Assembly (NCBI GenBank): GCA_029261065.1
Contig: JAJDCB010000024.1
Coordinates: 102,364 to 166,363 of the forward strand
Direction of reading: 5' to 3'
DNA: 64,000 nucleotides
DNA from: Candidatus Omnitrophota bacterium
GTDB lineage: Bacteria; Omnitrophota; Gorgyraeia; Zapsychrales; Zapsychraceae
The translations under genes were made by a program, and so were the position numbers. Below the pieces are notes generated by a model that was not told the origin of the DNA, made no database searches, and saw only the letters and a list, made by a program, of their open reading frames with translations. The stretch's first letter is position 1; the number at the start of each line of letters is the position of its first letter. Positions 41,877 to 64,000 of the stretch are shown here, piece after piece.

Positions 41877-41877
41877 C

Positions 41878-43634: not shown

Positions 43635-43710
43635 AATGATAGAATATAGGTATCTCTAAGTTTCGTCAAGGTTTATGTAGGGCTTTAATGCAATTTTAAA
43701 ATAGCCTTTG

Positions 43711-44211: not shown

Positions 44212-44222
44212 GATGTAGAAAA

Positions 44223-45617: not shown

Positions 45618-45625
45618 GGTTACTC

Positions 45626-46402
45626 CTATTTAGTTAATTTAGAGCTCATCGCACTGAAAATATCTATCGGAATAGGAAAAAGTGTTGTTGTGTTATTTTC
45701 ACTTCCTATTTCAACCAACGTTTGCAAATAACGTAATTGTAAAGCCATCGGATACTTTTGCATTAAATCAGCAGCCTGACAAATTTTCTCCGCAGCCTGA
45801 AACTCACCTTCTGCTGCAATAATTTTAGCACGACGTTCCCGCTCAGCCTCTGCTTGACGAGCCATCGCACGCCTTAAATCTTCGGAAATATCAACATGTT
45901 TAATTTCAACATTATGAACCTTTACACCCCAAGGATCTGTTTGCTTATCAAGAATAACCTGCAACTTTGCATTAATAGCTTCCCTTTGACTTAAAAGATC
46001 ATCTAATTCAACTTCACCTAAAACACTTCTAAGGGAAGTTTGCGCCATTTGATTGGTTGCATATTGAAAATCTTGAACCTCATTAATCGCTTTTATGGGA
46101 TCCATAACACGAAAGTAAGCAACTGCATTAACCTTAGCTGAGATATTGTCTTTCGTTATAATATCCTGTGGAGGCACATCAAGTGTTATAATTCTCAAAC
46201 TTACCTTAACAGCTTGTTCAAAAGGCCAAGCCACAATCGTTAAACCTGGTCCACGAGGTGCAGGAACAACGCGCCCTAAAAAATAAACCACCAAACGCTC
46301 ATATTCTCTTGGGAACTTAACCCAGTTATATAATAAAGTAAAAATAAGACCTGCAATAATTAAAAAAACTGGCATATCACTTCTCCTTGTTTTGAGAATC
46401 AA
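45626..46402 (-). CDS. SPFH/band-7 (stomatin/prohibitin-like) membrane protein
   Basis: N-terminal TM. SPFH core. C-terminal coiled coil with Ala/Glu-rich [22 protein letters not shown]. Confidence 0.85.
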
Positions 46403-47882
46403 TTTTAGAAATTGTTAAGTTAAGTCCCTCGATGCTTTTAACGACAACGGCCATTCCTTTTTTAATGTCACCGTCATCGGCAATAGCATTCCAAATAGTG
46501 CCATGAACAAATACCTTTCCATATTGGGAGGCTGAGAATTGAGTTAAAGCCTCACCTTTCTTGCCAACGATTCCCGCTTCACCTGTTTGAACTTTTAATT
46601 TTCTAAATTTGACAAAGATACGAAGAAAATAAAAAGCAACACATCCTGAGATGACTACGACACTAAAAATAGCTGATTGTGAAACACGCATAATAGGATC
46701 AACAGATTCAAATAAAAGCATAGAACCTAATACAAGACAGACTAATCCCCCTAACGTCAATAGACCAAATCCTGGGATAAAGGCCTCTGAAACTAATAAC
46801 ACTAAACCCAAAACCATTAAAGAAAGGCCTGCATAATTAGTAGGTAATGTCTGCATACTATAAAAAGCCAAAATTAAAAATATCGATCCTAATATTCCAG
46901 GAACCCCAACGCCAGGATGTGTAATTTCATAGAGCAGACCATAAAAACCAAAAATCATCAAAAAATATGCGATATTAGGACTTGCCAATATATTAAAAAA
47001 TTGCTGACGCATATCCATTTTAGACTCTTTTATCTCAGCATATTTCGTTTCCAATGTGATCAGCTCACCGTTAACCTTTAATTGATATCCATCTAACTGT
47101 TCTAATAAATCATTTCGATTTGCGGCTAAAATTTCAATAACACCTTTTTCGTGAGCTTCATCTGCCGTAATCGAATCACTTTTTGTAACACTTTGAACCG
47201 CCCACTCTACATTTCGATTTCTTTCATTTGCAATTGATTTAATAAAGGCAACCGTATCATTTAAGATTTTACTAGCCATGGGATTCTCATCCTCGATGAA
47301 AGTTTCATCTTCTTTATCGTCTGAAATGTTCTTTGTTTCGGAATTTTCTTCTTCCTCCAAATGTTCAACATCTTCTTTTAAACCCTGACGTTGGTTTTTA
47401 AGTTCATCAATCAATTCTTTAAGCTCTGACCAATCTCCTCTGCCCTTAGGTGCTTTTCCTCCTCCTAATTGAACAGGATGTGCAGCTCCAATATTGGTTG
47501 ATGGAGCCATTGCTGCTATGTGGCTTGCATATGTTATGAAAACTCCGGCTGATCCAGCCCGAGATCCGTTAGGAGCTATGTAGACTATAATAGGAACCTT
47601 GGCTCTCAGCATCCTTTTAACAATCAAACGCGTTGATGAGAGAAGTCCTCCGGGAGTATCTAACTCGATGATAAGGGCTTTTGCATTATCACTTTCAGCA
47701 TATGTAATCGCATCTGTAATATACTCAGCTGTGACAGGATTAATCGAATCATCTTCTAAGCTAATGAGATGAAAGATGTTTTGGGGTAAACTTTGTGTTT
47801 GCTTTGAAAGAAAAATTAAAAATAAACCAACGCATAGGATAAGAAGATACGGAAAACAACGTTGGCTTTTAGTTTTTGTCAT
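46377..47882 (-). CDS. NfeD-family membrane-bound ClpP-class serine protease (long form, C-terminal OB-fold)
   Basis: N-terminal ClpP-like domain. Acidic insert. Multi-TM segment. C-terminal NfeD beta-barrel ([27 protein letters not shown]). Overlaps the SPFH gene by 26 nt. Confidence 0.8.
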
Positions 47883-47900
47883 AAAATATTTAACGATTGA

Positions 47901-49355
47901 CTACGCATGATGTTGAAGATAGTGGGTAAGAAGTCGCACCCCCGCTCCTGTAGCGCCATGAGAGAAATACCATCTCTCTGCGCCATCAACAAAAGAAGTC
48001 CCTGCAATATCCAAATGAGCCCAAGGGGTAGCTTCTGTAAATTGTCTTAAAAACTCTGCAGCCGTTAACGTACCTGCTGCTCCTCTGGGGGTACCTAAAT
48101 TTTTAATATCGGCAATCTCGGATTTTACGGAATCTTTAAGTTCTGGATAAGTAGGTAATCGCCATACCCGATCATTCGTTTCGTTGGAGCTATAAACTAA
48201 ATCTCTTGAAAGATTATCATCTGTAGTAATGAGTCCGGTATAATCATGACCCAAGGCCACAACACAGGCGCCTGTTAGTGTAGCAATATCAATAATTCGT
48301 TTTGGTTTATAATTTTTAACCGTGTAACTAATAGCATCCGCTAAAACAAGCCTTCCCTCAGCATCTGTATTGGCAACTTCAACAGATTTTCCAGCATATC
48401 CTATGATGACATCCCCTGGCTTATACGCCTTAGATCCTGTCACGTTTTCAGCTACACCAAGAACAAAAATAGCGTTCTTTTTTAATTTTAGATCCAATGT
48501 ATTTTTCAAAGCACCCACGACAGCGGCCGCACCACTCATATCAATACGCATCGATTCAATACCGCCTGTAGGTTTTAAATTTAATCCCCCTGTATCAAAT
48601 GTTAATCCCTTTCCAACTAAGGCTGTAAAATCTCCTTTTTTGGCTGACCCTTGATATTTAACAATGATTAATTTCGGTTCATTGACACTACCTTGATTAA
48701 CAGCTAAATGAAAGCCCAATCCCTTTTGCTTCATTTCCTTCTTATTTAAAATTTCAAGAGAAATATTTTTCTTTCCCTTAATAAGCGCCCGAACAACTTT
48801 TTCAAAATGAGTTGATGTAACACTATCGGCATTATCATTGACTAAATCACGAGCAAGATTATTTCCTTCACAAATAGTAACCGCATCTTGATAAAGCTTT
48901 TTCTTAAGAGCAATAAGAAACACATTTTTTTGTTCCTCTTTTTCTTTTTTTGATTTTTTCGAAAAATATTTATTCCACTTATAGCTCCCTATCATGATGG
49001 ATTCTATTAGGGGAACGATAATAGAATCTTTTTGTTGATGAGCAATTAACTCTAATGTATTACAATGAGTTAAGAATGATGAGATTAGGGCATTTTTTAC
49101 AGAAATCTTTAAAGATGTCTGTGTTCTTTCATTGTCTTTACCTACACCAACAAATAATAACGTTTGTTTCTTATGGACCGCAGGACATAGCTGCCCATTT
49201 TCTGCTTTAAATAATTTATTATCAACTAAAGGTTTTAGGAGAGATCGTATCTGTGCGGGCAGATGTGTTAACGTATTCTTTTTTATCTGTTCTTCACTTA
49301 ATAAAATAATACAGGCCTGCTTATCATACAGAGCTTTGGAACGAAAAGTAATCAC
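47901..49355 (-). CDS. pepA: Leucyl (cytosol) aminopeptidase, M17 family
   Basis: M17 signature NTDAEGRLVLADAI. Metal-binding residues present. 484 aa. Confidence 0.9.
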   Translation of the reverse strand: MITFRSKALYDKQACIILLSEEQIKKNTLTHLPAQIRSLLKPLVDNKLFKAENGQLCPAVHKKQTLLFVGVGKDNERTQTSLKISVKNALISSFLTHCNTLELIAHQQKDSIIVPLIESIMIGSYKWNKYFSKKSKKEKEEQKNVFLIALKKKLYQDAVTICEGNNLARDLVNDNADSVTSTHFEKVVRALIKGKKNISLEILNKKEMKQKGLGFHLAVNQGSVNEPKLIIVKYQGSAKKGDFTALVGKGLTFDTGGLNLKPTGGIESMRIDMSGAAAVVGALKNTLDLKLKKNAIFVLGVAENVTGSKAYKPGDVIIGYAGKSVEVANTDAEGRLVLADAISYTVKNYKPKRIIDIATLTGACVVALGHDYTGLITTDDNLSRDLVYSSNETNDRVWRLPTYPELKDSVKSEIADIKNLGTPRGAAGTLTAAEFLRQFTEATPWAHLDIAGTSFVDGAERWYFSHGATGAGVRLLTHYLQHHA

Positions 49356-49393
49356 GTCTTTATATCCTCTCTCTTTTTTAATTATTTATTAAA

Positions 49394-50683
49394 TTAACGT
49401 TGATCTATAGGAACAAACGGACGTTCCGTCGCCCCAGTATAAATTTGTCGTGGTCGACCAATTTTTGACTTTGGATTTTCTTTCATTTCTTTCCAATGAG
49501 CAATCCATCCTGGCATACGTCCAATCGCAAACATGACTGTAAACATATCTGTTGGAATTCCTATAGCCTTATAAATGAGACCACTATAAAAATCGACATT
49601 CGGATAAAGTTTGCGTTTAACAAAATATTCGTCTTTAAGTGTTGCCTCCTCCAGTTTGAGGGCAATTTCCAAAAGTGGATCATGGATTCCTAATTTATCG
49701 AATAGTTCATGCGTTCTCTTTTTAATAATGATACTTCGTGGATCAAAATTTTTATAAACCCTATGACCAAATCCCATCAATCTATAGGAATCATCAGGGT
49801 CCTTGGCTTTATCAATAAATTTTTGAACATCACCGCCGGCTTGATGAATTTCCTCCAACATCTCAAGAACCTTTTGATTAGCGCCACCATGTAATGGCCC
49901 CCACAACGCACACACTCCCGCCGAAATGGAAGCAAACATATTCGCCCAAGAACTCCCCACCAATCGTACTGTTGAAGTACTACAATTTTGTTCATGATCA
50001 GCATGTAATATTAAAATTGAACGTAAAGCGCTAACAATAATATCATCAATAGGAAATTCTTTTTCTTTTGTTGAAAACATCATATGTAAAAAATTAGCAA
50101 TATATGATAAATCACTACGTGGTGGGACAAAATCTTGATTAAGACTTTGTTTATATGTATAGGCAGTTATTGTACGCACCTTTGATAACAATTGTGCAGC
50201 TGTTTTTTTCATCTCTTCCTGACTGGGTTCAGGCGCTAATAGTTCTGGATAGTAACCTGATAGGGAACAAATCATAGCAGATAAAAGCCCCATAGGGTGC
50301 CCCCCTTGAGGATAACCGCTAAAGGAGCTTATCATATCTTTATGCAAGTCAGCGTGGGCTGTAAAAGACTGTGAAAATTGTGATAATTCATCCTTTTTAG
50401 GTAACTCACCTTCAATAAGCAGGTAGGCTGTTTCGACAAAACTCGATTGTTCAGCAATTTGTTCTATAGGATAACCTCTATAGCGTAGAATACCCTTCTC
50501 TCCATCCAAATATGTAATGGCACTGGTGCATGAGCCAGTATTACCAAACCCATTATCAACTGTGATATAAGAAGTCTCGCCACGTAACTTCGTTATATCA
50601 ATACCCTTTTCATTCTCTGTACCAATAATCACAGGAAAGTCGTAACTTTTTCCATCAATAACAATTTGAACTTTTTCATCCAT
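49394..50683 (-). CDS. gltA: Citrate synthase
   Basis: GFGHRVYKNFDPR signature and catalytic His/Asp blocks. 429 aa. Confidence 0.95.
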   Translation of the reverse strand: MDEKVQIVIDGKSYDFPVIIGTENEKGIDITKLRGETSYITVDNGFGNTGSCTSAITYLDGEKGILRYRGYPIEQIAEQSSFVETAYLLIEGELPKKDELSQFSQSFTAHADLHKDMISSFSGYPQGGHPMGLLSAMICSLSGYYPELLAPEPSQEEMKKTAAQLLSKVRTITAYTYKQSLNQDFVPPRSDLSYIANFLHMMFSTKEKEFPIDDIIVSALRSILILHADHEQNCSTSTVRLVGSSWANMFASISAGVCALWGPLHGGANQKVLEMLEEIHQAGGDVQKFIDKAKDPDDSYRLMGFGHRVYKNFDPRSIIIKKRTHELFDKLGIHDPLLEIALKLEEATLKDEYFVKRKLYPNVDFYSGLIYKAIGIPTDMFTVMFAIGRMPGWIAHWKEMKENPKSKIGRPRQIYTGATERPFVPIDQR

Positions 50684-50889
50684 AAATATACTCCATTTAA
50701 TTTTGAGAGGTTGATCTGGGTTTATTTCTTGTGATAAGGATCAATCGGTTTTGTTCTTCACAGTTAACTTTTTTGTTCTATCACATAGATTTGAAACAGA
50801 ATAACAATAAATCAAAACACATTCCGCTGATTCCTATTACCATTATATTATGAAAAAGCATTTATTCAAGATGATTCACACAGGAGTCA

Positions 50890-52146
50890 TTATTTTTTTA
50901 ATTTTATTACATTTTTTAGCTTAAAAAATACAAAAATGAATGCAATTGCGGCAATACTTGAAATCAAATGTAAAACTAGCTTCTCCCATCTATTGTTTAC
51001 AGGTGTAATATTCGGTTTTTCTATTGTAAACATATTACTCATCATAGTTGATATTTGCGATGATTCAAACTTATATTCTTCTAATTCCTTTAAATAAGTA
51101 TCAACTAACTTATTGGTTTCCTTTTTTATTTTTATATAGCTATTATCATTTAAAGATGCCGTAACATCATCTATATAATAATGATTCATTATAGATAAAA
51201 GCATGCGTTTTCTATTTTCGAGAAACAACTTTCTTATAGCTAGAGAAAAATCAAGTTCTAACTCCATTGTTAGCTTATTTTTAAGTTGTTCTTTTAACTG
51301 ATCAATAATAAGAGTTTTATACTTGTTAATTTTTTTTGTTTTTTCTTGCGACTCCACATTTCTTGAACTTAAAATCGCGCTTACCTTTTGTTCGAATTCA
51401 AGCTCTAGAATACGACGTTCTAAATTAAAATATAAAAAATTGTCTTTAGAAACTTCTTTTATTAAACTCTCAAAAAGTTGATGGGTATTATGAGAAAGAA
51501 GTACATTTTTGTATTTATTAATGTCACGTATAACCTTATTGATTTCTGTCTCTATTTTCATAGATGCTAATAACAAAATCGTATCCAAAGTTTCTTTATC
51601 CTCTTTATTAAGGACTAAGACCTTTTTATTAAAAGGAAACATATAAAGCGTTTGTTCGTTGAGGATAATGTCATCAATTTTTTTAGAAAATTTATGTTGA
51701 AGGCGATCCAATTTATCCACGGTGTATTGGTTAATATCATCCATTTTCTGTTCGACAAACACGTCTCCAAAAGCAGCCGCCATCAAAGCCGCTTTTTTAG
51801 GATTATCGGAAATGACACTTATTGCAACTTTATTGCTCGCAATTTTTTCAACATTAACATTAGATTGCAAGGATATAGAGGAATCATAGACAAAATCCTG
51901 TGTATTCCTCTCATCCACGGGCATCACATGTGTTTTGGTTATAATTCGATTGACTACAGGTAAACTTCTAATAAACTGTATTTCCTTATTGATATCAAGA
52001 TCTCTACCTTCAAAGTTTTTAAGTGATAAAAAGATTTTAGCCTCATAAACATTTTTGTGGAATAACTGATAACAAAACACAATAATATTAACGATAAGTA
52101 GGATTTTTAAAATTGTAAATTTTTTATTCTTTAACAGTTGAAGCAT
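50890..52146 (-). CDS. Membrane-anchored coiled-coil protein (N- and C-terminal TM helices), unknown function
   Basis: TM FTILKILLIVNIIVFCYQLF near the N-terminus and LVLHLISSIAAIAFIFVFFKL at the C-terminus. 6-nt gap to the upstream gene. Confidence 0.55.
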   Translation of the reverse strand: MLQLLKNKKFTILKILLIVNIIVFCYQLFHKNVYEAKIFLSLKNFEGRDLDINKEIQFIRSLPVVNRIITKTHVMPVDERNTQDFVYDSSISLQSNVNVEKIASNKVAISVISDNPKKAALMAAAFGDVFVEQKMDDINQYTVDKLDRLQHKFSKKIDDIILNEQTLYMFPFNKKVLVLNKEDKETLDTILLLASMKIETEINKVIRDINKYKNVLLSHNTHQLFESLIKEVSKDNFLYFNLERRILELEFEQKVSAILSSRNVESQEKTKKINKYKTLIIDQLKEQLKNKLTMELELDFSLAIRKLFLENRKRMLLSIMNHYYIDDVTASLNDNSYIKIKKETNKLVDTYLKELEEYKFESSQISTMMSNMFTIEKPNITPVNNRWEKLVLHLISSIAAIAFIFVFFKLKNVIKLKK

Positions 52147-52152
52147 TTAAAT

Positions 52153-53340
52153 TTAATCCTCTTTCATTTCATCAAGCATCTTCTTTAATTGTTCTGAATC
52201 CAAATCATCCTGTGACTTCTCAGCTAAGTCTTCTTCATCGCTCGGCTCTTTAACACTCCCCTTATCCTCACTCAATTCTGCTGCAACTTCAGTTTCCTCA
52301 GGTTTAACTATTTGTTCAAAATAAGCCTCCACACTAGCATTTGGAAAATTTTCGTCATTAACCAAAGACTCTTCATTATTCTGCTCGTTTTGTTCTTTAG
52401 TTGTAAAGGCTTGGCCAATTATCGTATCTGATGATGTATTAAAAAGAGGAGCATCATTCTCTGAAGCAACAGACTCTTCATCTCCAGTAGGTAATAGTAG
52501 CTTTTCTTCATCTGAATCTATTGATACTTCAGGCAAATTTTCACTTTGATCTATTTCATCATCAACGGGCTTTGGGGAGGTTTTCCCTTTTTCGATATCA
52601 TCTACTATTTGTAGAATATTGGCGTCACTATCATCAGGTATTTCCAATTCCATAATTTCTGCTGTAGCCTCTTTATCAACTGTCTTTTTAGTTTCATTTA
52701 TTTTCGTATTCTCTTTTGGTTTTTTTTCTACAGTAGTTTGCGTTGGTTTCTCTTCCTTAGGCCTATTAAATAAATAATAAAATTTTTTAAGCAAAATATA
52801 ATTAACGATAAAACCAAGGACTATTAGAACCAAAAATTGAAGTAAAAATCTAATACTAACCATCTCTTTAAGTTGATAAAAATAGCCAGGCATTAGACTT
52901 TCAACGGCAATAATACTTTTCAGTTGGCGATTATACAGAAATCGAATATGTCTTACTGATTCAAAATTTTGCTCATAAGTATTTTCTGGGTATGAAATCC
53001 AGCCCTCTTTAAACTTTTGCATTTCAAAAACAATTTTGCTCTTATACATCCGCCAATAATTGTCCTTTTTCTCTCTATCAAGAATCATAGCCCCTGTCGC
53101 TTGATCAGTAATATATACCAAAACATTTTTTGAATACAATTCTTTTAAATCAATGTCTGGCGAATCTAATTTAGAATTTAAATAAACGGCGAGATTATCT
53201 AAGTTTTTTTTCTCAAGCAGGGTAGTTTTTTGAAGATGAATAAAGAGTTGATGAATTGTAATGGAAGAAAAGGCACAAATAAAAAAGAAACAGTATATTA
53301 TGAAAAGAAATTTAAATGTATTATTTTTTTTATTTGGCAT
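52153..53340 (-). CDS. Two-TM membrane protein with about 140-aa extracytoplasmic domain and long acidic disordered C-terminal tail
   Basis: TM1 FKFLFIIYCFFFICAFSSITI, TM2 FLLQFLVLIVLGFIVNYILL. Tail rich in E/D/K/S/T. 46 nt downstream of the giant gene. Confidence 0.55.
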   Translation of the reverse strand: MPNKKNNTFKFLFIIYCFFFICAFSSITIHQLFIHLQKTTLLEKKNLDNLAVYLNSKLDSPDIDLKELYSKNVLVYITDQATGAMILDREKKDNYWRMYKSKIVFEMQKFKEGWISYPENTYEQNFESVRHIRFLYNRQLKSIIAVESLMPGYFYQLKEMVSIRFLLQFLVLIVLGFIVNYILLKKFYYLFNRPKEEKPTQTTVEKKPKENTKINETKKTVDKEATAEIMELEIPDDSDANILQIVDDIEKGKTSPKPVDDEIDQSENLPEVSIDSDEEKLLLPTGDEESVASENDAPLFNTSSDTIIGQAFTTKEQNEQNNEESLVNDENFPNASVEAYFEQIVKPEETEVAAELSEDKGSVKEPSDEEDLAEKSQDDLDSEQLKKMLDEMKED

Positions 53341-53386: not shown

Positions 53387-56300
53387 TTATTCGTAAGCTT
53401 CTATAAGATCCAAAGCATTATTAATTTCACTTTGTAATTCTTGAAAAACTGGATTTTGATCCCTGGGCTTATCAAATATGGTTGTTTTATCACGTTCTTG
53501 AGAAAGCAATTCTTCATACTTCTTTTTTGAATCATCTAAATCTTTAGTTAGATTGTGAATCGCTTCCTGTAAGGAGGATCTTTCCTTCATTAAAGAAAAA
53601 AGCTCACTATCTAATACTCTTTTCTGGTTTTTCAACTCATCATTAACAGACTTTTGCTCTGATAAGAGACCTTCTGTATCATTAATCTTCTTTTTAAACT
53701 CTTCAATATCTTTCTGTAGTGGACGCACATTAGTTAAAACCTTACTTTTAAAGGCTTCATCCATATTACTCATTTTGTCTTCAAGTTCATTTACCTGTTT
53801 TTGTAAAGGCACTCGAGCCTCCATAACTTTATTTTTAATCTCCCCTTCATGCGCATCTACTTCTTTTGTCAAATCATCCACTTTATATTTAAGGCTCTTT
53901 TTTTCAGACTCTTCTTGAGCCAATTCTGTTTCTAAAACATTTAACTTTTGCTTCATACGAGACAAAATTTCATCTTTCTCAGAAAGCAATTCTTTAGACT
54001 TTTCCAATTTTTTGTTAATTTTACTCATTTCTTCATTTAAGCTTAAGGCTCCAGAGCTCTCAATTTCTCTAACTTCATTCTCTTTTTCGATTAACTTTGC
54101 GGTTAAATTCTCAATTTCTTTTCTTAAAACTGATTCAGCAGCTTTAATTTTTGAAGGTAAAGCCTCTTCTGTATTTTTTAATTTTGATATCGTTGACTGA
54201 AGGAGACCTTCTGTATTCTCTCTTTCCGATTGAATATCTATTAATTGTTTCTTAATATTATCGAGGTTTCGATCCTTTTCAGCTATCAAAGCTTCCCGAT
54301 CCATAAGAGATTGTTTTAAGGATCGCACTTTCTGATCAACATCACCCTTACTTTGTTCCTTGATTTTTATAAAATCAAGGCGAACGTTTTCAATTTCACT
54401 TTTAAGAGAAGCAACTTCTGTATTCTTCTCATTTTCTAAGTTTTGATATTTTACTAATACTTCATCCCTCTCTTTAAGAGCTAATTTATAATCAGACTCT
54501 AATCCCGTCTTTAATTTTGTTTGACCAGTTTTTAATTCTGCAACAACCTTCTGATTTTCAATAACTTCTTGCTGGGCTAACTTAAGTCTACTTTCTAAAT
54601 CCAACATCTCCTTATAATATTCCTCCTTCTCTGCCTTAACCAATTTATAGTCTGTCTCCAAAGTCTTGTTTAATTTTGATTGATTTCTTTTTAACTCATC
54701 AACTATTTCTTTATTCCTAAAATTTTCTTTTTCAAACAACGCAGCTTGATCTTTTAACTCTACAATCTTTTGCAAATACTGATCTTTTTCTCTGTTAAAG
54801 ATAGACACCTTCATATCAGATTGATCATTCAATACGCTAATTTTGTTCTCAAGCTCTGTTGTCTTTTTCTGATATTCAGCAATTTTATTTCTTAATTCCT
54901 TAAAATCACTATCCTTAGTCTCAAGTTCTTTTTTAACCTTCGACATATTGCCATCAATCCCATTAAGTTGTTTTTGCAACTTATCATTTTCAATAACAGA
55001 TAAATTGAATTCTTCCTCTAATCGTTGTTTTTGTAATACAAGCTTATCTGTGTGTTGTTTTTGTTCAAGATTAATTTGATTAGAAGCCTTTAGCCGCTCA
55101 TTTAGACTCTCTTGTTGATATATTAAATCTTTTCTTAATGCCGCAATTTCTTGATCAAATTTGTCTTGAATTTGATTATTCTGTGTTTCTAATTGACTAT
55201 TAGTCCTTTTAAGGTCATTACTTTGATTTTCAGCCTCTCTAATTTTTCGCATTAAATCTTGTTTCTCATTATCAAAATTTTTTAACTGTACAGAGTTTAA
55301 TTTCTCACCCTCTTTTAAAACATCAAGACTCCTCTTTAGACCATTGATTCTTTCTAATAATGGTTTTTCAATAAGAGTTATTTTATCTGCAAACCCAATC
55401 TTCAAATTATTGACATCCTTTTGTAAATTAGAAGCACTGTTATTTAAGTTTTCATTCTCTTTTGTCAAGGACGAGACCTGGTTAATTAAATTCGAATTTT
55501 TTGATTTATAATCTGTCAAATTCGCTAACTGATTGTTAACAATATTTTGAAGATCTTTATTTTCATCAGCAGATTTAAGAAGCTTCTTATCCAAACTCAA
55601 TTTAAGATTAGAAAGAGTTTCTCGGTACTTTTCTTCAATTTCTTTTCTTTGCTCAGAAAGATCATTACGTAAGTTTTCATTTTTACTCATTACGAGATTA
55701 TTGGATCTATTTAATTCTTCAAATTTATCAGAAGCTTCCTTAAGACTTGCCTGATATCTTCTATTTTCTTCTTTTTCTACTGCCAAATTTTGAGATAATT
55801 CTGTTAATTCTGTCGTTTTAGAAACTAATTGTTTGTTCAACTTATCCAATTTCCCACCAAATTCTACCGTAGATGTATTATTTTTAGATTCCAACTGTTT
55901 AAGACGCGCGAGTAAACTTGTTTTTTCATTCTCTAAAGCAGAAAATCGGTTACTTGTCTCCTTTAATTGAGAGTTTAAATCTTGATTTTTGTTTTCTAGC
56001 TCCTGATTAACAGCCATATGATCGTTTAATTTAAGCTTTCCAGCCTCTATTTCTTTGAGTAACGGTGCCTTTTCCTCATTAATGCGTTGAGGTATAACAC
56101 TAGTGACATCACGCAACTTTATTTCTAACTTTGAGTTCTCTGTTTGCCATTTGGAATTCGTTTCCTTTTCGTTATTTAATCGAGTAAGAAGATCGTTGTT
56201 CTCATCATTAAGCAGTGACATTTCTTGAGAATTTGTTTTAATTTGGTTCGAAAGATTCGTTTTCTGCTTTTTAAAATCTTCAATTTCTTTTCTTAAAGGA

Positions 56301-59300
56301 GCTTGGGCCATCTCAACTAAACTTGGGATATCACTTTCCCTTTGTTTAAGCTGCTCTTCTAATAGAGATATATTATTACTTTTCTTGACAAGATCTTCTT
56401 CAAATGTGCTAACAAGTCCCTGCAGCTCCTTTTTTTCGACTACTAGTTGTTCTTCGGTAATTTTTAACGTGCTATATGAATTTTGAATTTCTTGATTTTT
56501 ATTCTTTAATTCTTGAATTTGACTATTTAATTGAGAAGTTTCACCTGCAAACTTCTCACTAGAGGCCTTTATCTGATTTAATAGATTCTTTTTTAATTGA
56601 GCAATTTCTTCATTTAACGCCTCTTTAGATTGTTTACTTTTTAAATTCAAACCCACAATAGACTCTTGTGCTTTTTGTAATTTATTAGATAATTGAGATA
56701 TTTCAGACTCAAAATCTCTATTTTTGCCATTTAATGAAGCAATTTCATTTACAAGTTTAGAATTATTACTTTTAAGTTCATTTTTCTGCGCACTAAAAAC
56801 TTGGATTTCTTCTTCTTTTTCTCTTATAAATTTTTGCTTAATATTCTTTATACGGGCCTCCATTTCATTTTTTTCATTAAACAAGGCTGTATATTCAATA
56901 CTCTTATCTTTAAATTGTTTTAATAACGTTTCTTTTTCCTTTAAATTCTGAGATATTACAAGCTCTTTATTTTTTAATTGCGAACTTATATCTGTTATTT
57001 TTTTTTCTAAAATGGATTCTTGTAATTCTAAAGGCTTTCGAGCTTCAGCCAATTGTTTGGGAATGTTATTTTCAATTTCTTGTTTAACTTTGGCCAAATT
57101 TTCTAATTTTTCATTTAACTGAATAACGTTTTGACCTAATTTTTCTAAATCCGTTTTGTATTTATTATTTGAATTGGTGAGTCTTTGTATTGTCTTTACT
57201 TGAGCTGAATTTTGCTGATCTTTCTTTTGAAAGGTAAGTTGCAGCTCTTTATATTTTTCATTTAACTGAATTAGCCTCTGATCAACTTTTCCTAAGTCCG
57301 CTTTATATTTATTGTTTGAACTGGTGAATGCATCTATTGTCTTTTCTTGAGCTAAGTTTTGCTGATCTTTCTTTTGAAAGGTAAGTTGCAGCTCTTTATA
57401 TTTTTCATTTAACTTCTCAAGTGTCACATTTAATTTCTTAAAATTTAATTGAGAGCTGTTCACTTGATTCGAAGCCTTCTTAACATCTGACTCTAACTGC
57501 GCAATAATCTTTGTTTTATCTAAAAGGTTTGCATTTAATTCACTTTTCTGAGTATTAATATTACCCAATTTTTTCTCAAATTCCGATTTTGCTGAATCTA
57601 GAAGCTGCTGATTTTTTAAAACAATTTGATCCACTTTCGCCTTTAAGGCATCTACTTGAGCTAATAAATTTGTTTCTTTTTGTGATTTTACTTCTAGACT
57701 ATTTGATAAGCCCTTTATTTGCTTCTCTAAAGACGCAACATGAGCTTCTTTATCTTTAGTAATGTTTTCAGCATTTTTTAGTTTCATCTCATTTTGACTT
57801 ATATTATCTCTAAGGGTTTGCTTTTGAACTTCATGTTTATCGGTTAATGCTTCAAAAGCCTTTACATTTTCTTTCTTCAAAGTTTCAATTCTTGTGTTTA
57901 ATTGCGCAACAGCATCATTTGCCTTGCCTAATTTTGTGATAATATCTGTTTTGTTTTCTTCTAAATTTCTTGAGTTCTTAATTTCATTGTTTAAATTTTC
58001 ATTAACACCCCTTAAATGCCCTTCTAACGTTTTAATTTCATTTAACAAAGGTGTGGTCTCTTTCGATATTAGAGCAGGCATAGCTTCTTTGGTTGCTTTC
58101 AAGGTGGTCTCTACAGCTACTTTTTGCTTAACTAAATCCTCTTGTTGAACTTTTAAATTTGTTAAATTCGACTGTAAAGAAGCATAAGACTTCGTTAACT
58201 CTTGAAATTTTTGTGTATTTTGTTTAATAGCACCTTTTTTTTCCTCTAATAAATTCTTAAAAGACAACAACTGCTCATTTAATGGCTTTTTAACCAATTC
58301 GATCGTTTTTGGAATTTCATTTTTTATCTTAACAATTTTATTTTCTAAATCATTAATAACATTTGCTTGATTTTTCAACTCTTTGGCTTGTGCCTTATTC
58401 ACAACTTCTTTTTTTGTAACTGTATCCCTTAAATTGGCTACATCTTTAGATTTACTCTTTATAGTCTTAGTTATTTGCTCATTACTATCCTTTAAACTTT
58501 TAATTTGAAGCTGATAATCTTTTTCTAATTTCGATAACTTTAAATTTGCAGCTGTTTTATCTTTTTTCCAATCTGCGTTTGCTTTAACCCATCTGTTGTC
58601 TTTTTCACTAATCGCACCAGATAAATCTTTTATTTTGTTATTAAGATCGGCATTTTTATTATTTAATACTAAAAATGTTTTTTCCTGTTCCTTTATAAAT
58701 ACATTTTTTTGCTTAAAACCTTCTGTTAATTGAGCAATTTCGCTTAATAAGGGAGCCTTTTGTGCATCAATCATTCCAGGAATATTTGCCTTTGTCGTAT
58801 TTAAATTTTCAGTTAATTTTGCTACGTTCTCATTAGACGTTGATAGCTGACTGTCCGTGTCGTTAAGCTTGTTAACTAATTCTTTGCTTTGAGCATTTAA
58901 AGAATCATACGCCCCATTACGCTCATAAAGCTCATTTTTTATTTTTACAATTTGATCCTTAAGAACCCCCATCTCTTTAAAAAGCGGTTCTTTAGCCTTC
59001 TTTATCTGAGCAGGGATAGTCTGCTTTACAGAGGTTAATTCTTCACCCTTTTGATTTAACAAATCTTGTAATTTCTTTCGATTTGCCGCATCTAATTTTT
59101 GTTGACTTAATAACCGCCCTTTTTGTTTCTCCATTTCAGAGACGGAGTTCTGATAACTCTCCAAAGCCTTTGTTAACTCAACTATTTTGTTATCTGATTC
59201 CTTTAATTTAAATTGTAATGGATCACGAACCTTAGCAATCTGTTGTGGAACACTCATTTTCAGATTATTAAAATTTTCCGTTAATTTATTAATATCGCTA

Positions 59301-62300
59301 ATTTTCTTTTTATTCTGAATGCTTAACGTTTCTATAGCCGTATTATTCTTTGATAATTCATCCCTTTGCTTCTCTATAAGAGCATCTTTGGTCTTTCCAG
59401 ATGTAGCAAATTGATTTATCTTCTGATTTAAGCCATTAATCTTATTCTCTAATGGCTTCTTGGCTTGCGCAATTTGTGATGGATAAGCCGCTTCTTTTTC
59501 TTTGATGATATTCGCATAATTCTTCACTTTCTTCTCTAGATTAGTCTTTACTGATGAAACCTTCATCACGGATTCTTCAGAGTCTTGTAGAAGTTTATTT
59601 AATTCAGAGATTGAAATACTCTTATCTTCTATATCATCAGTTAGAACACTTAATTGTTTTTGTTGTGCAGCAATCTTCTCATTTAAAGGCTTTAAGGATG
59701 CAAGAAGATCACGATTATATTTTTTATTGGCAACAACTAGGGCGTTATCTAATTCAGAGGCCTTAGTTTGAAAGTGATCGGACTGCTCTTTTAAAGCATC
59801 CATTTTTTGCTTTAAACTATTGCGTTGTAGCTCAGCATTGCGGATTGATTTATCTTTGTTTTCTACACTTTGAGTAAGTTGTTTCACCTGCCTATTTAGA
59901 GATGAATTTTCCTTCTCTAAAGGTGTCTTTGCCAAAGAAATCTGTTGAGGGATGCTTTTCTTTAATCGATCAGAACTTGCTAGCTGGGCATCTAACTTTT
60001 TTTGATATTCGCTAATAACTTCCGTTTGCGTTAAGACTTTTTGAGTTAACGTTTCTTTTTCTTTATTTAAAAAGACTAACGACTTCTCCCTTGCTTTATT
60101 TGCATTATCTAGAGTATTTACTTTGTTAAGTAACTGTGAGGCTTTCTCCTCTAACGGTCGCGTGGCTTCACTAAGTTGCTGGGGAATCGATTTAACAGTA
60201 TCATCCAATTTCTTCTCAAGAGCTGTCTTTGCTTTAGATAGAAAAGATTCGCTTTCTTGTAATTTCGTATAGCTTTCTTTTAAACGTAATTGATCTGCGT
60301 TTAATTTTTGTAAAAGCGATGCCTTTTCAGATAAATTCACAGTTAATTGCTGAAGTTTTTCTTCCAATGGTTTTTTGGCTTGTTGTATTTCAAGCGGTTT
60401 ATTCTTTAAAGTATTGCTTAGTTTTGCTTGCGAGAGATTTAAATTTTGCTCATACTTTTTTATCTCAACACTTGACTTTTGTAATTGGCTTATTAAACTT
60501 TCCTTCTCTAAATTTAAATTTTTTAATAGTTTTTTGTTTTCTTCATTAATTTTTAAATATTCGGATTCCATAGATTTGGCATTTGCTTTGCTTTGCTTCA
60601 AAGCATCAGCTAAGCGCGAACTATTGCCTTCATAAGTCCTCTTCTCTTCAGCTAAAGATTTTTGCAAATCAGAGACTTTAGAATTTAAAGGATCTCTCAC
60701 CGCATTTACTTTTAGAGGAATACTTGCTTCTAACTGTTCGAACTTCTTAGCCAACTGATATAATTGCTTCTCCGTATTATCTTTGGCCACCTTTAAAGAT
60801 TTAAAGCTATTCGTCATAGTCTTATTTTCATTTACAATTTCTTGAACACTTACTTGACTGCTCTTTAAATTTTCCGTTGTTGTTATAAGACTCTTTGTTA
60901 ATTCTTTAATCCTGGCTTCTAATGGCTGCTTTACTTTTTCAATTTCTGTAGGAATGCTCGAGATAAGCTCAGCATTCTTTTGTTCCAAACCGCCCTTTGA
61001 TTTTGACAATAAAAGATTTTGTTCTTTTAATTTTTGAAGTTCTGTGATCTTTTGCTTATTCCCTTTATCCAGCTCAACAATGAGTCCATCCTTTTTATTT
61101 AATTGCGCATCGCTTAAAGATAATTTCTTATTTAATTCAGCCATTTGAGCTTTAAGCGGCTCTTTCGCTAATTCAACTTTTGAAGGTAAAGATTTTTTTA
61201 GTGCATCCAATTCTTTACTCAGTTGATTAACCTCAGCATTTAAATTATTCCTCAAAGTAAAAAGTTTTTCTTTATCAGAATTTAACGAATTAACTTTATT
61301 GCTATAATTTTTTAAATTTAGATTTCTTTGTGACAGAGTCTCTTTTAGATCAGCAACAGTGTTTTCAAGCGGCAATTTGGCTTCTTTTAGTTTTGCTGGC
61401 CAAGCTTGATTTTGTTTTGAGAGTTCTGAAGCGAGCTTTTTTCTCTCTGACTCTACTTTGATGAGCGTATCTTTAAGCTCTAGAAGACTATTTTCTTTTG
61501 CAGTATTTAGTTGTTTAAGTTTCTCCTCAGAGCTTTTAAAACTTACTTCTTTCAATTGTAACGTTTTATTTTGCTCCGCTATTCTTTTCTCTAAAGGTAA
61601 CGTTGCTTTTCTTATCTCTACAGGTAATTTTTTCTTAAACAGATCAAATTCTTTAACAATTGCTTTTCTTTGATTCTCAGAATTACGGAAGGCTGTATTT
61701 CTATTATCAAGATTATTTTGAAGATCTGAAATTGTTTTCACTAAAGGCGTACGCACAGATTGAATTTGATTAGGCAACGCTGCATTTAATTGTTTAATTT
61801 CATCTTTAAGAACTACAACCTCTTTATTACTTGCATCTAAGGCTTGTTTTCTCTGATTTGAAATAGCCGCTAATTTACTCTTTTCAGCTGAACTAGAAAG
61901 TTCTTTCTCTTTTGAAACAAGTAATTGTTTTTGGAAGCTTTGTAATTGTTCTTCTAAAGGTTTCTTAACACGACTTATTTCAGCAGGAATAGAGGCTTGT
62001 AACTTTTTAACTTCAGAAGTTAAAGCAGCAACCTTTGAATCTTTTGTTTCAAGAGCACCACCCTGTACTTTTAATTGAGTCACTAAAACAGAGATCTTGC
62101 TAAGTAGAGGCTCTTTGCTATCTTTAATTTGCTTTGGAATATTCCCTTTTAGAGCTCTTAATTGAGAATCTTTGGTTTTAATCTCTTTTGAAAGGGCTGT
62201 AAAATTAGCTTGGATGTTACTGTATTTGCTGAGAGTCTCTTTTCTGGATTGCGATTCTTTGGACAATTGCGATTCTTTTAAAGCAAGCTGCTTCTCTAAT

Positions 62301-64000
62301 TCCTTCATAGATGCTTGAATGAGTTTTAATTGTTCTTCTAGAGGAGCTTTAGCCTCTTTCACTAGTTGAGGAACAGCTTGTTCTTTACTTTTCAGTTGAC
62401 TCTTTATCTGAATATTTTCATTTTTTAAATTTTTAAGTGCGGTATTTGATACTTGCAATGTTTTTTGAGTATCACCTTCTAATGTTTGAAATTGCTTTTT
62501 AGAATTTTCTAATTCTGCGTTTAATGTTGATAATTTGCTTTTTTGTGCGTCACTATCCTTACCTAAACGTTGAATTTTTTCATTTGCAGCTTTCAATTTT
62601 ACCTGCGTCGCTTCATAATCGTTGCTTATCGATGTCGTTTCAAGCTTATGTTTTTTTTGTTCTTCTACCACTAATTTTTTTAAATTTTCAAGTGCGGTAT
62701 TTGATACTTTCAATTTTTTCTGAGCATCACTTTCTAATATTTGAAATTGCTTTTTAGAATTTTCTAATTCTGCGTTTAGTGTTGATAATTTGCTTTTTTG
62801 TGCATCACTATCCTTACCTAAACGTTGAATTTTTTCATTTGCAGCTTTTAATTTTGCCTGAGACGAATCATAATCTTTACCTTTTGAAGTCGTTTCAAGC
62901 TTATGTTTTTCTTGTTGTTGTGCCACTGATTTTTTCAAATTTTCTAATTCTTTTTTTAAGAAAATCTCACTTTTTGTAAATTCGCCGCTTACCCTTTCTT
63001 TTTCCGTATTTGCCGTTAGAAGTTGCTTATTTAATTCTTTAAGGTCATTGCTTAACTCAACTATCTGGTTATTAAGTTGGGCATTGACTTGCTTATCTCT
63101 TTTACTTATAGCTTTTTGATTAGTTAATGTCGTTTTTAATTCTTTAAGGGATGCTTCTAAAGGTTTTTTAACCAGCTCGATTTTTTGGGGAATTTCGTCA
63201 GTCTTTGTTTTTAGCTGTATTTTTAAGTTTTTAACTTCTTTTTCTGAAGAATCATTTTGTGCTAGAAGATTATTTTTTTCTTGCCTTAGTTGATCAATAA
63301 CTTTTTGATCATTTTCCATCAAAGCTTCTTTGGATTGCAGCGACTTCTTTTTCTCTTTTAATTTCTTAGACAATTCAGAGATTTGAAAATTTAAAGGCGC
63401 TACAACTTCTTTCTTTTGCTGCACCATACTGGCATTGAGCTCAACCAATTGGGATGTAAGACTTTCCTTTTTGGCCATTAGTAAGGCTTGCTTTTCTTCA
63501 GACGATTTCTTTACTGATAAAAGTTCGCTAGAAAATTTATTCCCCAAACTATCTACCTCTTTAAAATGGGCTTGCTGTTGCCTTGCAAGTTTATCATTTA
63601 GATTTTTCAAATCAGCTTCTAAAACTTGAGTCATGGACTTTTTGCGTGCCATTTCTTTTTTTAATTTATCAATTTGTTTTTGATAGTCGCTTACTTCACT
63701 CGATTTTTTGGAAATATTTTCATTTAATTTGGTAATATCCGTTTTATATTTACTCTCATTTTGTTCAAGCAACTTTTTATTTGAAACTTTTAGCGTTGTT
63801 AAATCCTTATTTAACAACTTTACCTTTTCTTCTAATGGCGTTTTAGCTGATGCAATCTTTTTAGGTAAATTTATTTCTAAATTTTTAATTTTTGATGTTA
63901 ATTTCGCAACCTCTGCATCTAATCGCTCATTATTGACCCGTTCGCCTTTTATCTGTTTATCCAACAACTCTTTATCCTTCTTAATGTCATGTAATGTTTT
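53387..64000 (-). CDS. Giant coiled-coil repeat protein, more than 3,530 aa. The ORF is open at the window end, so the real N-terminus lies beyond 64000.
   Basis: One uninterrupted minus-strand ORF of more than 10.6 kb. The in-frame sequence upstream of the track's TTG start (63965-63967) has no stop up to 64000. Composition K/E/Q/L/N/S-rich with heptads. A recurring motif appears at least 25 times: [IL]P-x-[QK]-[IL]-x-x-[AV][KR]-x-PL-[EL]. Confidence 0.85.
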   Translation of the reverse strand, partial: KTLHDIKKDKELLDKQIKGERVNNERLDAEVAKLTSKIKNLEINLPKKIASAKTPLEEKVKLLNKDLTTLKVSNKKLLEQNESKYKTDITKLNENISKKSSEVSDYQKQIDKLKKEMARKKSMTQVLEADLKNLNDKLARQQQAHFKEVDSLGNKFSSELLSVKKSSEEKQALLMAKKESLTSQLVELNASMVQQKKEVVAPLNFQISELSKKLKEKKKSLQSKEALMENDQKVIDQLRQEKNNLLAQNDSSEKEVKNLKIQLKTKTDEIPQKIELVKKPLEASLKELKTTLTNQKAISKRDKQVNAQLNNQIVELSNDLKELNKQLLTANTEKERVSGEFTKSEIFLKKELENLKKSVAQQQEKHKLETTSKGKDYDSSQAKLKAANEKIQRLGKDSDAQKSKLSTLNAELENSKKQFQILESDAQKKLKVSNTALENLKKLVVEEQKKHKLETTSISNDYEATQVKLKAANEKIQRLGKDSDAQKSKLSTLNAELENSKKQFQTLEGDTQKTLQVSNTALKNLKNENIQIKSQLKSKEQAVPQLVKEAKAPLEEQLKLIQASMKELEKQLALKESQLSKESQSRKETLSKYSNIQANFTALSKEIKTKDSQLRALKGNIPKQIKDSKEPLLSKISVLVTQLKVQGGALETKDSKVAALTSEVKKLQASIPAEISRVKKPLEEQLQSFQKQLLVSKEKELSSSAEKSKLAAISNQRKQALDASNKEVVVLKDEIKQLNAALPNQIQSVRTPLVKTISDLQNNLDNRNTAFRNSENQRKAIVKEFDLFKKKLPVEIRKATLPLEKRIAEQNKTLQLKEVSFKSSEEKLKQLNTAKENSLLELKDTLIKVESERKKLASELSKQNQAWPAKLKEAKLPLENTVADLKETLSQRNLNLKNYSNKVNSLNSDKEKLFTLRNNLNAEVNQLSKELDALKKSLPSKVELAKEPLKAQMAELNKKLSLSDAQLNKKDGLIVELDKGNKQKITELQKLKEQNLLLSKSKGGLEQKNAELISSIPTEIEKVKQPLEARIKELTKSLITTTENLKSSQVSVQEIVNENKTMTNSFKSLKVAKDNTEKQLYQLAKKFEQLEASIPLKVNAVRDPLNSKVSDLQKSLAEEKRTYEGNSSRLADALKQSKANAKSMESEYLKINEENKKLLKNLNLEKESLISQLQKSSVEIKKYEQNLNLSQAKLSNTLKNKPLEIQQAKKPLEEKLQQLTVNLSEKASLLQKLNADQLRLKESYTKLQESESFLSKAKTALEKKLDDTVKSIPQQLSEATRPLEEKASQLLNKVNTLDNANKAREKSLVFLNKEKETLTQKVLTQTEVISEYQKKLDAQLASSDRLKKSIPQQISLAKTPLEKENSSLNRQVKQLTQSVENKDKSIRNAELQRNSLKQKMDALKEQSDHFQTKASELDNALVVANKKYNRDLLASLKPLNEKIAAQQKQLSVLTDDIEDKSISISELNKLLQDSEESVMKVSSVKTNLEKKVKNYANIIKEKEAAYPSQIAQAKKPLENKINGLNQKINQFATSGKTKDALIEKQRDELSKNNTAIETLSIQNKKKISDINKLTENFNNLKMSVPQQIAKVRDPLQFKLKESDNKIVELTKALESYQNSVSEMEKQKGRLLSQQKLDAANRKKLQDLLNQKGEELTSVKQTIPAQIKKAKEPLFKEMGVLKDQIVKIKNELYERNGAYDSLNAQSKELVNKLNDTDSQLSTSNENVAKLTENLNTTKANIPGMIDAQKAPLLSEIAQLTEGFKQKNVFIKEQEKTFLVLNNKNADLNNKIKDLSGAISEKDNRWVKANADWKKDKTAANLKLSKLEKDYQLQIKSLKDSNEQITKTIKSKSKDVANLRDTVTKKEVVNKAQAKELKNQANVINDLENKIVKIKNEIPKTIELVKKPLNEQLLSFKNLLEEKKGAIKQNTQKFQELTKSYASLQSNLTNLKVQQEDLVKQKVAVETTLKATKEAMPALISKETTPLLNEIKTLEGHLRGVNENLNNEIKNSRNLEENKTDIITKLGKANDAVAQLNTRIETLKKENVKAFEALTDKHEVQKQTLRDNISQNEMKLKNAENITKDKEAHVASLEKQIKGLSNSLEVKSQKETNLLAQVDALKAKVDQIVLKNQQLLDSAKSEFEKKLGNINTQKSELNANLLDKTKIIAQLESDVKKASNQVNSSQLNFKKLNVTLEKLNEKYKELQLTFQKKDQQNLAQEKTIDAFTSSNNKYKADLGKVDQRLIQLNEKYKELQLTFQKKDQQNSAQVKTIQRLTNSNNKYKTDLEKLGQNVIQLNEKLENLAKVKQEIENNIPKQLAEARKPLELQESILEKKITDISSQLKNKELVISQNLKEKETLLKQFKDKSIEYTALFNEKNEMEARIKNIKQKFIREKEEEIQVFSAQKNELKSNNSKLVNEIASLNGKNRDFESEISQLSNKLQKAQESIVGLNLKSKQSKEALNEEIAQLKKNLLNQIKASSEKFAGETSQLNSQIQELKNKNQEIQNSYSTLKITEEQLVVEKKELQGLVSTFEEDLVKKSNNISLLEEQLKQRESDIPSLVEMAQAPLRKEIEDFKKQKTNLSNQIKTNSQEMSLLNDENNDLLTRLNNEKETNSKWQTENSKLEIKLRDVTSVIPQRINEEKAPLLKEIEAGKLKLNDHMAVNQELENKNQDLNSQLKETSNRFSALENEKTSLLARLKQLESKNNTSTVEFGGKLDKLNKQLVSKTTELTELSQNLAVEKEENRRYQASLKEASDKFEELNRSNNLVMSKNENLRNDLSEQRKEIEEKYRETLSNLKLSLDKKLLKSADENKDLQNIVNNQLANLTDYKSKNSNLINQVSSLTKENENLNNSASNLQKDVNNLKIGFADKITLIEKPLLERINGLKRSLDVLKEGEKLNSVQLKNFDNEKQDLMRKIREAENQSNDLKRTNSQLETQNNQIQDKFDQEIAALRKDLIYQQESLNERLKASNQINLEQKQHTDKLVLQKQRLEEEFNLSVIENDKLQKQLNGIDGNMSKVKKELETKDSDFKELRNKIAEYQKKTTELENKISVLNDQSDMKVSIFNREKDQYLQKIVELKDQAALFEKENFRNKEIVDELKRNQSKLNKTLETDYKLVKAEKEEYYKEMLDLESRLKLAQQEVIENQKVVAELKTGQTKLKTGLESDYKLALKERDEVLVKYQNLENEKNTEVASLKSEIENVRLDFIKIKEQSKGDVDQKVRSLKQSLMDREALIAEKDRNLDNIKKQLIDIQSERENTEGLLQSTISKLKNTEEALPSKIKAAESVLRKEIENLTAKLIEKENEVREIESSGALSLNEEMSKINKKLEKSKELLSEKDEILSRMKQKLNVLETELAQEESEKKSLKYKVDDLTKEVDAHEGEIKNKVMEARVPLQKQVNELEDKMSNMDEAFKSKVLTNVRPLQKDIEEFKKKINDTEGLLSEQKSVNDELKNQKRVLDSELFSLMKERSSLQEAIHNLTKDLDDSKKKYEELLSQERDKTTIFDKPRDQNPVFQELQSEINNALDLIEAYE
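57111..57420. repeat. About 2.1 tandem copies of a 147-bp (49-codon) unit inside the giant gene
   Basis: tgctgatctttcttttgaaaggtaagttgcagctctttatatttttcatttaac occurs at 57213 and 57360. tcatttaac anchors at 57111, 57258 and 57405. Protein LNEKYKELQLTFQKKDQQN(L/S)AQ...IQLNEK is repeated. Confidence 0.75.
62430..62940. repeat. Two tandem copies of a 255-bp (85-codon) unit inside the giant gene, about 90% identical (coordinates +/- a few bp)
   Basis: Anchors aagtgcggtatttgatact at 62435 and about 62690. Protein copies ...KLKAANEKIQRLGKDSDAQKSKLSTLNAELENSKKQFQ(I/T)LE(S/G)D(A/T)QK... are near-identical. Confidence 0.8.

Follow-up and report, generated by a model that had tools for sequence, protein, structure and literature searches.

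We analysed a 64,000-nt stretch of contig JAJDCB010000024.1, hereafter called the window. Its right-hand end is occupied by the 3′ part of a giant minus-strand gene encoding a coiled-coil protein, and within this gene lie two tandem duplications, with units of 255 bp and 147 bp, that are the main subject here. The start codon and the 5′ end coding for the putative signal peptide lie past the window's right edge. The features of the gene that bear on the duplications are the following:

53387..64000, minus strand: giant coiled-coil gene, 3′ 10.6 kb; one stop-free open reading frame (ORF) for the C-terminal 3,537 of 3,913 amino acids (aa)
62693..62947, minus strand: 255-bp duplication, copy 1; 85 aa, LENLKKSVAQQQEKHK...KVSNTA, residues 352-436 of the window translation
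62438..62692, minus strand: 255-bp duplication, copy 2; 85 aa, LENLKKLVVEEQKKHK...QVSNTA, DNA 89% identical to copy 1
62420..62437, minus strand: third boundary microhomology of the 255-bp duplication; CTTAAAAATTTAAAAAAT, LKNLKN, closing the a-X-a-X-a pattern
57266..57412, minus strand: 147-bp duplication, copy 1; 49 aa, LNEKYKELQLTFQKKDQQNLAQEK...RLIQ, residues 2197-2245 of the window translation
57119..57265, minus strand: 147-bp duplication, copy 2; 49 aa, 85% identical to copy 1
57107..57118, minus strand: third boundary microhomology of the 147-bp duplication; part of AGTTAAATGAAAAAT, LNEK, after copy 2

Both repeats are confirmed as true in-frame tandem duplications, as the original prediction had claimed from the sequence, with coordinates that were correct to within about 10 bp. 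Tandem Repeats Finder (TRF) recovered the two arrays with periods of 255 and 147: the first at 62421-62944 (2.1 copies, 89% matches, 0% indels, score 859) and the second at 57106-57414 (2.1 copies, 86% matches, 0% indels, score 464). A pairwise repeat search gave the same picture, with 90% identity between 62421-62675 and 62676-62930 and 85% identity between 57106-57252 and 57253-57399. The two periods are multiples of three, and both arrays lie within the one minus-strand ORF. The best TRF score among 100 codon shuffles of the giant gene was 83. Moreover, the exact repeats of at least 25 nt found by a 25-mer index of the 64-kb window (58, 44, and 39 nt) all fall within the two arrays, and the peptide cores AANEKIQRLGKDSDAQKSKLSTLNAELENSKKQFQ and LNEKYKELQLTFQKKDQQN are present in both copies of the duplications.

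The boundaries of the units point to how they arose. Each duplication has one short sequence that precedes copy 1, recurs at the junction, and appears again behind copy 2. This microhomology is 15-18 nt long. It is CTTGAAAATTTAAAAAA-like for the 255-bp unit, where the three boundaries read TTAGAAAATTTGAAAAAA, CTTGAAAATTTAAAAAAA, and CTTAAAAATTTAAAAAAT, and is AGTTAAATGAAAAAT in all three places for the 147-bp unit. Such a-X-a-X-a boundaries match the expectation for exchange between short direct repeats, which bears out the earlier suggestion of slippage or unequal recombination; the duplications were thus probably produced by one of these two routes. The unit sizes, 85 aa (7 × 12 + 1) and 49 aa (7 × 7), leave reading frame and heptad phase intact.

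The copies have diverged to a degree that makes the duplications moderately old, not very recent. The 255-bp copies differ at 28/255 nt and the 147-bp copies at 22/147 nt. For the first pair, 64 of the 95 codons compared are identical, 8 differ synonymously only, and 23 carry amino-acid changes; for the second the corresponding numbers are 36, 6, and 14 out of 56. Nonsynonymous (dN) and synonymous (dS) divergences by the Nei-Gojobori method are 0.093 and 0.234 for the 85-codon unit and 0.142 and 0.288 for the 49-codon unit. With dS at about 0.22-0.29 and many amino-acid changes between copies, the description of these events as recent was therefore overstated.

The divergence is strongly uneven along the units. 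The two copies of the 85-aa unit share a 38-aa core, KLKAANEKIQ...SKKQFQ, that is unchanged in protein and differs by just three synonymous substitutions, between flanks that are about 80% identical; the 147-bp copies match perfectly over their initial 56-58 nt and at 77% beyond. This pattern could mean that the copies were retained for function, with the cores (38 aa of the 85-aa unit, 19 aa of the 49-aa unit) serving as binding or assembly sites whose doubling was selected, and with purifying selection or gene conversion preserving them as the flanks drift. The scarcity of differences in the 38-aa core has a binomial P of 3e-6, for a core window that was picked post hoc. However, the dS in this core, 0.12-0.14, is below that of most flanks yet not zero, and one flank has 0.10, so that selection and gene conversion are inseparable. 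The cores are also not conserved among the other family members examined, and have no known partner or motif. We regard functional retention as unlikely, and the uneven identity fits purifying selection on the cores as well as it fits intragenic gene conversion.

The product of the giant gene is a long coiled coil. A search of 1.84 billion representative proteins with a profile of its repeating unit found P0001, a protein of 3,913 aa of which the window translation is an exact C-terminal suffix. The first 376 residues of P0001 begin MKNRKYPFYKITLILITFNICFLTPHLYA|QKDD (also given as MKNRKYPFYKITLILITFNICFLTPHLYAQKD), and its N-terminus, with a charged n-region, a 13-residue hydrophobic core, and an A-x-A-like cleavage site, was read by eye as a putative Sec signal peptide. 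No lipobox cysteine in a suitable context is present there. The product is rich in K (15.6%), L (13.6%), E (11%), and N (8.7%), and has zero Cys. Its hydrophobic residues follow a 3.5-residue periodicity with a power of 0.90 (0.18 ± 0.02 in shuffles), and AlphaFold2 (AF2), run on the single sequence, modelled three units as a single continuous helix (predicted local distance difference test score, pLDDT, 88.7). P0001 is thus nearly all heptad coiled coil and would measure about 0.5 µm if fully extended.

Domain searches returned little beyond coiled coil. Against the 3,537-aa window product, Pfam gave only sub-threshold coiled-coil families (Tup_N, Filament, TolA_bind_tri) and NCBIfam only sub-threshold coiled-coil matches to SMC and Rad50 models. 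Neither scan revealed an anchor domain, and the C-terminus reads ...QELQSEINNALDLIEAYE. A profile search of the PDB matched generic coiled coils only, through the C-terminal half of the unit, and left the proline motif of the unit unmatched.

The SMC and Rad50 matches, with E-values down to 1e-62, raise the question of a cytoplasmic SMC/SbcC/Rad50-like chromosome protein, as the database labels on relatives say: P0007 (the gene in L086) and P0012 carry the public labels 'Exonuclease SbcC' and 'chromosome segregation ATPase'. The best-scoring model, SMC_prok_B, reaches 209 bits, however, against a curated cut-off of 567 bits, and the matches are scattered over 8-16 coiled-coil stretches (16 for SMC_prok_B) with no ATPase head or hinge matched. 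Pfam gave only weak coiled-coil matches, and P0001 starts with a putative signal peptide. The missing Walker A/B head domains, together with this signal, refute the identity, which we consider to have practically no chance of being correct; the labels appear to be a coiled-coil misannotation.

The coiled coil has a periodic architecture that is older than the duplications. The motif [IP]xxIxxAKxPLE occurs about 25 times in the window product, predominantly at a spacing of 78 aa and also at 71 and 50 aa. In the unit alignment both prolines and the next leucine (P24, P33, L34) are invariant or nearly so, and a hidden Markov model (HMM) of the unit tiles most of the giant protein in a 78-residue register. 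The clearest part of this old architecture is the following stretch:

58616..60253, minus strand: seven consecutive canonical 78-aa units, with IPxQIxxAKxPLE in each (motif spacing, unit alignment A1, HMM map)

The duplications occupy motif-free stretches, between the anchors at 278 and 551 in one case and those at 1982 and 2321 in the other. Across the family, taken as the window gene together with P0001-P0047 and L084-L101, the distance between consecutive xPL anchors equals 7n+1 in 257/315 intervals (29, 50, 64, 71, 78, 85, 92, and 99 aa), so that every unit amounts to complete heptads with a single skip residue added. Such a 7n+1 unit, with its two prolines nine residues apart, had no match among the Pfam, NCBIfam, and PDB entries searched. 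A reading of the duplicated 85-aa unit as a degenerate, proline-less 78+7 unit (KKSVAQQQEKHKLE versus KKSIPQQISLAKTPLE) was unsupported by the unit HMM.

Two further observations concern the units. The motif-coding 39 nt of the units at 58280-58318 and 63158-63196, EIPKTIELVKKPL and EIPQKIELVKKPL, share 79% DNA identity across a distance of 4.9 kb, which is above that of other unit pairs. In addition, one unit with an extra conserved PLQASI[KR]FLEKRLL was seen in P0011 (around residue 1635), P0007 (around 2545), P0016, P0031, and P0002, which suggests an orthologous and functionally special unit. A possible proline-less counterpart in the window protein, SEIFLKKELENL, lies at the start of the 255-bp duplication.

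The gene belongs to a rare, unannotated family of exported coiled-coil proteins. The unit profile matched 133 of the 1.84 billion representatives at E < 1e-3 and 37 at E < 1e-10. The long members, of 1,000-4,143 aa, have N-terminal signal peptides and the 78-residue spacing and lack a curated family assignment; the 78-aa spacing is found also in P0002-P0014. A degenerate DNA pattern for IPxKIxxA[KR]xPLE found 20 loci in JGI metagenomes, about 13 of which are true family genes. The tail of the window protein, ...EINNALDLIEAYE (53390-53440, minus strand), is conserved as E[IV]xxAL[DE]LIE in many members that are divergent elsewhere, and the same end is found in P0002, P0005, P0007, P0009, P0011, P0015, P0016, P0021, P0037, P0039, P0056, and P0091. 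Other subgroups of the family end in ...ENxRLNQELGSL... or ...LDKNVDLGQKLxEMEARLK.... The conserved tail may be a docking or sorting signal.

Internal duplication is widespread in this family. Self-comparison of the proteins identified lineage-specific internal repeats in six members, and TRF identified in-frame tandem repeats in family genes from metagenomes:

P0004: internal repeat of 156 aa, 85% identity
P0012: internal repeat of 156 aa
P0003: internal repeat of 71 aa, about 8 copies
P0007: internal repeats of 371 aa and 99 aa
P0053: internal repeat of 198 aa
P0079: internal repeat of 71 aa
L084: in-frame tandem repeat of 435 bp, two copies, 89%
L086: in-frame tandem repeat of 297 bp, two copies, 85%
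L099: in-frame tandem repeats of 195 bp, two copies, 96%, and of 174 bp, 3.1 copies, 85%
L100: in-frame tandem repeat of 414 bp, 3.8 copies, 83%

Independent in-frame duplications have thus occurred in at least five other family genes. The duplications in the window are therefore typical of the family, one case of a recurrent process that also accounts for its four-fold length range. A related locus, L103, has 395-396 bp repeats at 82-89% identity with about 2% indels by TRF. Motif-bearing repeats, of 395-396 bp and of 274-275 bp, are dense over its positions 1-3627, where the unit profile matches just a short ORF; L103 may be a degraded family gene or an assembly rich in read errors.

Taken with the boundaries and the divergence, these data make it quite likely that the gene was built by a long succession of in-frame segmental duplications, of which the two repeats are the youngest that can be seen. 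Each of the two would have come about through unequal exchange or replication slippage at a pair of short A-rich direct repeats, 15-18 nt long, of a kind that is abundant in the low-complexity coding sequence of the giant gene. Exchange between such repeats would leave the a-X-a-X-a structure. The codon frame and heptad register are preserved in both, which is probably why the duplications were tolerated. Later divergence would have brought the copies to 85-90% DNA identity while a core in each stayed nearly identical, through purifying selection or gene conversion.

The contig is evidently metagenome-assembled, and we considered an assembly artefact, in which two strain alleles were placed in tandem or a repeat was mis-resolved by the assembler. 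One other assembly of the organism was found, the 6.5-kb Logan contig L001 (SRR15505515), which is 100% identical to the window. It ends at 56822, 285 bp before the 147-bp array, and covers neither duplication; this break does not lie at a repeat, however. Both duplications are also exactly in frame with clean, microhomology-bounded junctions, and the same type of duplication is seen in independent assemblies of at least five other family genes. The longest identical runs, 44 nt in the 255-bp array and 58 nt in the 147-bp array, are below read length, and the 22-28 differences between copies are scattered. Reads of 150 nt can therefore be placed uniquely and resolve both arrays. An artefact is accordingly very improbable, and the risk of assembly collapse at this region, which had been raised from the sequence, is low.

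The gene had also been likened to phase- or size-variable surface proteins. Phase variation is excluded, because units of 255 and 147 bp are multiples of three and a change in copy number cannot shift the frame. Arrays of the 1-9 nt units that define a contingency locus were not seen either, the short-period TRF rows in the gene having at most 3.4 copies and low scores. The surface assignment held in part: the signal peptide of the full-length product makes an envelope or surface protein plausible, and the Pfam and NCBIfam scans turned up no anchor domain.

An actively size-variable surface antigen, with the repeats acting as recombination hot spots and copy number differing between strains, would resemble the streptococcal Alp/Rib or M proteins or Bartonella BadA in its antigenic or length variation. 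Besides the signal on P0001, the 39-58 nt identical runs between copies would suffice for homologous recombination, and the family shows many independent duplications over a four-fold range of length. Against this, each unit has just two copies, and these are 10-15% diverged with a dS of 0.22-0.29, which indicates long coexistence without homogenisation or loss. Neither Pfam nor NCBIfam identified a cell-wall or outer-membrane anchor domain. P0001 is a singleton at 90% clustering, and no relatives of the repeat region were found in GTDB representatives or JGI metagenomes, so that a polymorphic relative is lacking from all three sets. The sole near-identical pair in the family, P0005/P0136, was considered as a length variant and differs only in the called start codon. 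Active size variation is thus rather improbable, and nothing indicates a switch or a mis-assembly.

Beyond the giant gene, the window places it in its genomic setting. The host appears from its gene content to be an Omnitrophota-like bacterium. The citrate synthase adjoining the cluster is 72% identical to that of L002, an Omnitrophota metagenome-assembled genome, and seven consecutive genes are syntenic between window 38837-50740 and L002 9974-18611 at 48-72% amino-acid identity (citrate synthase, M17 aminopeptidase, NfeD, SPFH, fumarase, a 131-aa protein, and a 461-aa protein). L002 lacks the giant gene, which in the window sits, together with two partner genes, exactly at the upstream break of synteny. 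A further link to the phylum is the source label of family member P0004, 'hypothetical protein [Candidatus Omnitrophica bacterium]'. The two partners are the following:

52153..53340, minus strand: downstream gene 1, 395 aa; two transmembrane segments around an outside domain of about 130 aa, acidic disordered tail
50890..52146, minus strand: downstream gene 2, 418 aa; N- and C-terminal transmembrane segments

These genes follow the giant gene closely on the same strand, with 46 nt between its stop and the 395-aa gene and 6 nt between the latter and the 418-aa gene. No terminator-like site was found on the minus strand between the three genes. Homologues of the 395-aa protein (28-29% identity, E 1e-17 to 1e-20) are found in the polysaccharide-export clusters L100 and L082/L083. 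The 418-aa protein shares 28% identity with P0135, in which PF02706 Wzz and PF13807 GNVR are found, and 25% identity across 434 aa with the Wzc-like protein of L100; it is a distant Wzz or polysaccharide co-polymerase-like protein. Searches for protein homologues of this downstream pair yielded a single distant match, P0135, and otherwise self only. The P0135 cluster has the order AAA_22, HD_5, Poly_export, Wzz. In L100 (1-11757) a family coiled-coil gene is directly followed by GT4, the 395-aa homologue, AAA_22, HD_5, Poly_export (Wza), Wzz/GNVR/AAA_31 (the Wzc-like 418-aa homologue), Wzy_C, and ABC-2, and the same succession, beginning with GT4, is seen in L082 and L083. This gene order is suggestive of a tie between the family and the envelope polysaccharide machinery. 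With the signal peptide and the linkage to Wzz-like and polysaccharide-export genes, the product could serve as a fibre of the envelope or cell surface.

In one subgroup of the family a UppP/BacA-like gene directly follows the coiled-coil gene. It carries the motif GITEFLPISSTGHLIL and was recognised by eye as an undecaprenyl-diphosphatase:

L092 1972-2742: UppP/BacA-like gene
L094 3731-4504: UppP/BacA-like gene
L099 12038-12928: UppP/BacA-like gene
L101 11697-12467: UppP/BacA-like gene

Other genes of the window deserve mention in their own right. The gene at 35901-38645 (minus strand) fuses a type IV pilus ATPase PilB (residues 4-573) to a C-terminal response-regulator receiver (789-913), and is adjoined by a PAS histidine kinase gene at 34067-35893. 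Among the products of a chemotaxis cluster at 18491-30014 (minus strand) are a CheA of 931 aa, a methyl-accepting protein of 752 aa, and a protein of 557 aa that has two CheX-like stretches.

Going further, we tentatively put forward a joint reading, to which we give clearly less than an even chance. The family would comprise hitherto undescribed coiled-coil rods, Sec-exported and on the scale of half a micrometre, from Omnitrophota and other uncultured bacteria, with a strict 7n+1 architecture of heptads and one skip residue per IPxxIxxAKxPLE motif. The rods would cooperate with Wzz/Wzc-type polysaccharide export, serving the envelope or capsule as scaffold, tether, or length ruler. If this holds, the tandem duplications would represent evolutionary tuning of rod length.

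Several observations weigh against the account given here, both of the duplications and of the rods. The timing and polarity of the duplications derive solely from the divergence between copies. The duplicated 85-aa unit lacks the proline motif, and the unit HMM detects none there. Duplications may have been filtered for heptad phase, as the duplicated periods are 7n or 7n+1 in the window (85 and 49 aa) and in part of the relatives (99 and 29 aa). A rule that every duplicated period is of this kind fails, however, for 145, 138, 132, 65, and 58 aa in relatives, and the periods of 145, 138, and 132 aa show that such a filter is not universal. These may span several units (145 = 5 × 29), and the 7n+1 rule is therefore put forward for unit spacing only. 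The signal of P0001, as read by eye only, could be an uncleaved signal anchor, and the AF2 model, being single-sequence and monomeric, is silent on oligomeric state. Finally, the polysaccharide-export link is confined to two loci, the window and L100, and other loci differ, for example in having the UppP-like gene.

Among known systems, the alpha C/Rib proteins of group B Streptococcus and the streptococcal M proteins are exported and fibrous, and their in-frame repeats arise by unequal recombination. A change in repeat number alters their length without loss of frame, and the M proteins form heptad coiled coils. They have many nearly identical units (about 95-100% at the DNA level), an LPXTG anchor, and documented variation in copy number. 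The window protein is like them in its putative signal peptide, in-frame tandem repeats, and coiled coil; it differs in that its units occur in 2.1 copies at 89% and 86% and that no anchor motif was found. Trimeric autotransporter adhesins such as Bartonella BadA and Yersinia YadA are likewise long, signal-peptide-bearing, coiled-coil-rich fibres, and their length evolves through duplication and loss of stalk modules. They need a C-terminal YadA-type beta-barrel anchor and head and neck domains, whereas Pfam finds no YadA anchor, head, or neck here and the C-terminus is the short helical tail E[IV]xxAL[DE]LIE. Long alpha-helical rods with a regularly interrupted register are also known from Streptomyces Scy/FilP, Thermotoga Omp-alpha, Staphylothermus tetrabrachion, and Lpp, some of which are envelope spacers or stalks; these have no sequence relationship to the window protein.

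Seen against these systems, in-frame segmental duplication is the normal evolution of long repetitive coiled-coil genes, and the finding itself is ordinary. Its useful by-product is the membership of the gene in a rare exported family with an unusually regular 7n+1 rule, a family that offers a clean natural data set on the duplications that a coiled coil tolerates. Omnitrophota cells are very small and are believed to attach to hosts or prey, and an exported rod of 0.5 µm could matter for their envelope architecture or for cell-cell contact.

Giant proteins have been described in this phylum as Archaeovorins and Dockerin-type proteins (bioRxiv 10.1101/2023.11.21.568195, 10.64898/2026.06.07.730766), with 10,000-147,000 aa and multiple domains, including HEAT, TPR, dockerin, TSP3, and enzymes; the word 'coiled' is absent from both papers. 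P0001 differs from them in having 3,913 aa and coiled coil only, with no HEAT, TPR, dockerin, TSP3, or enzyme domains in the Pfam and NCBIfam scans. It is like them in that it probably shares the same phylum background, one in which long secreted or membrane proteins with internal repeats are the rule.

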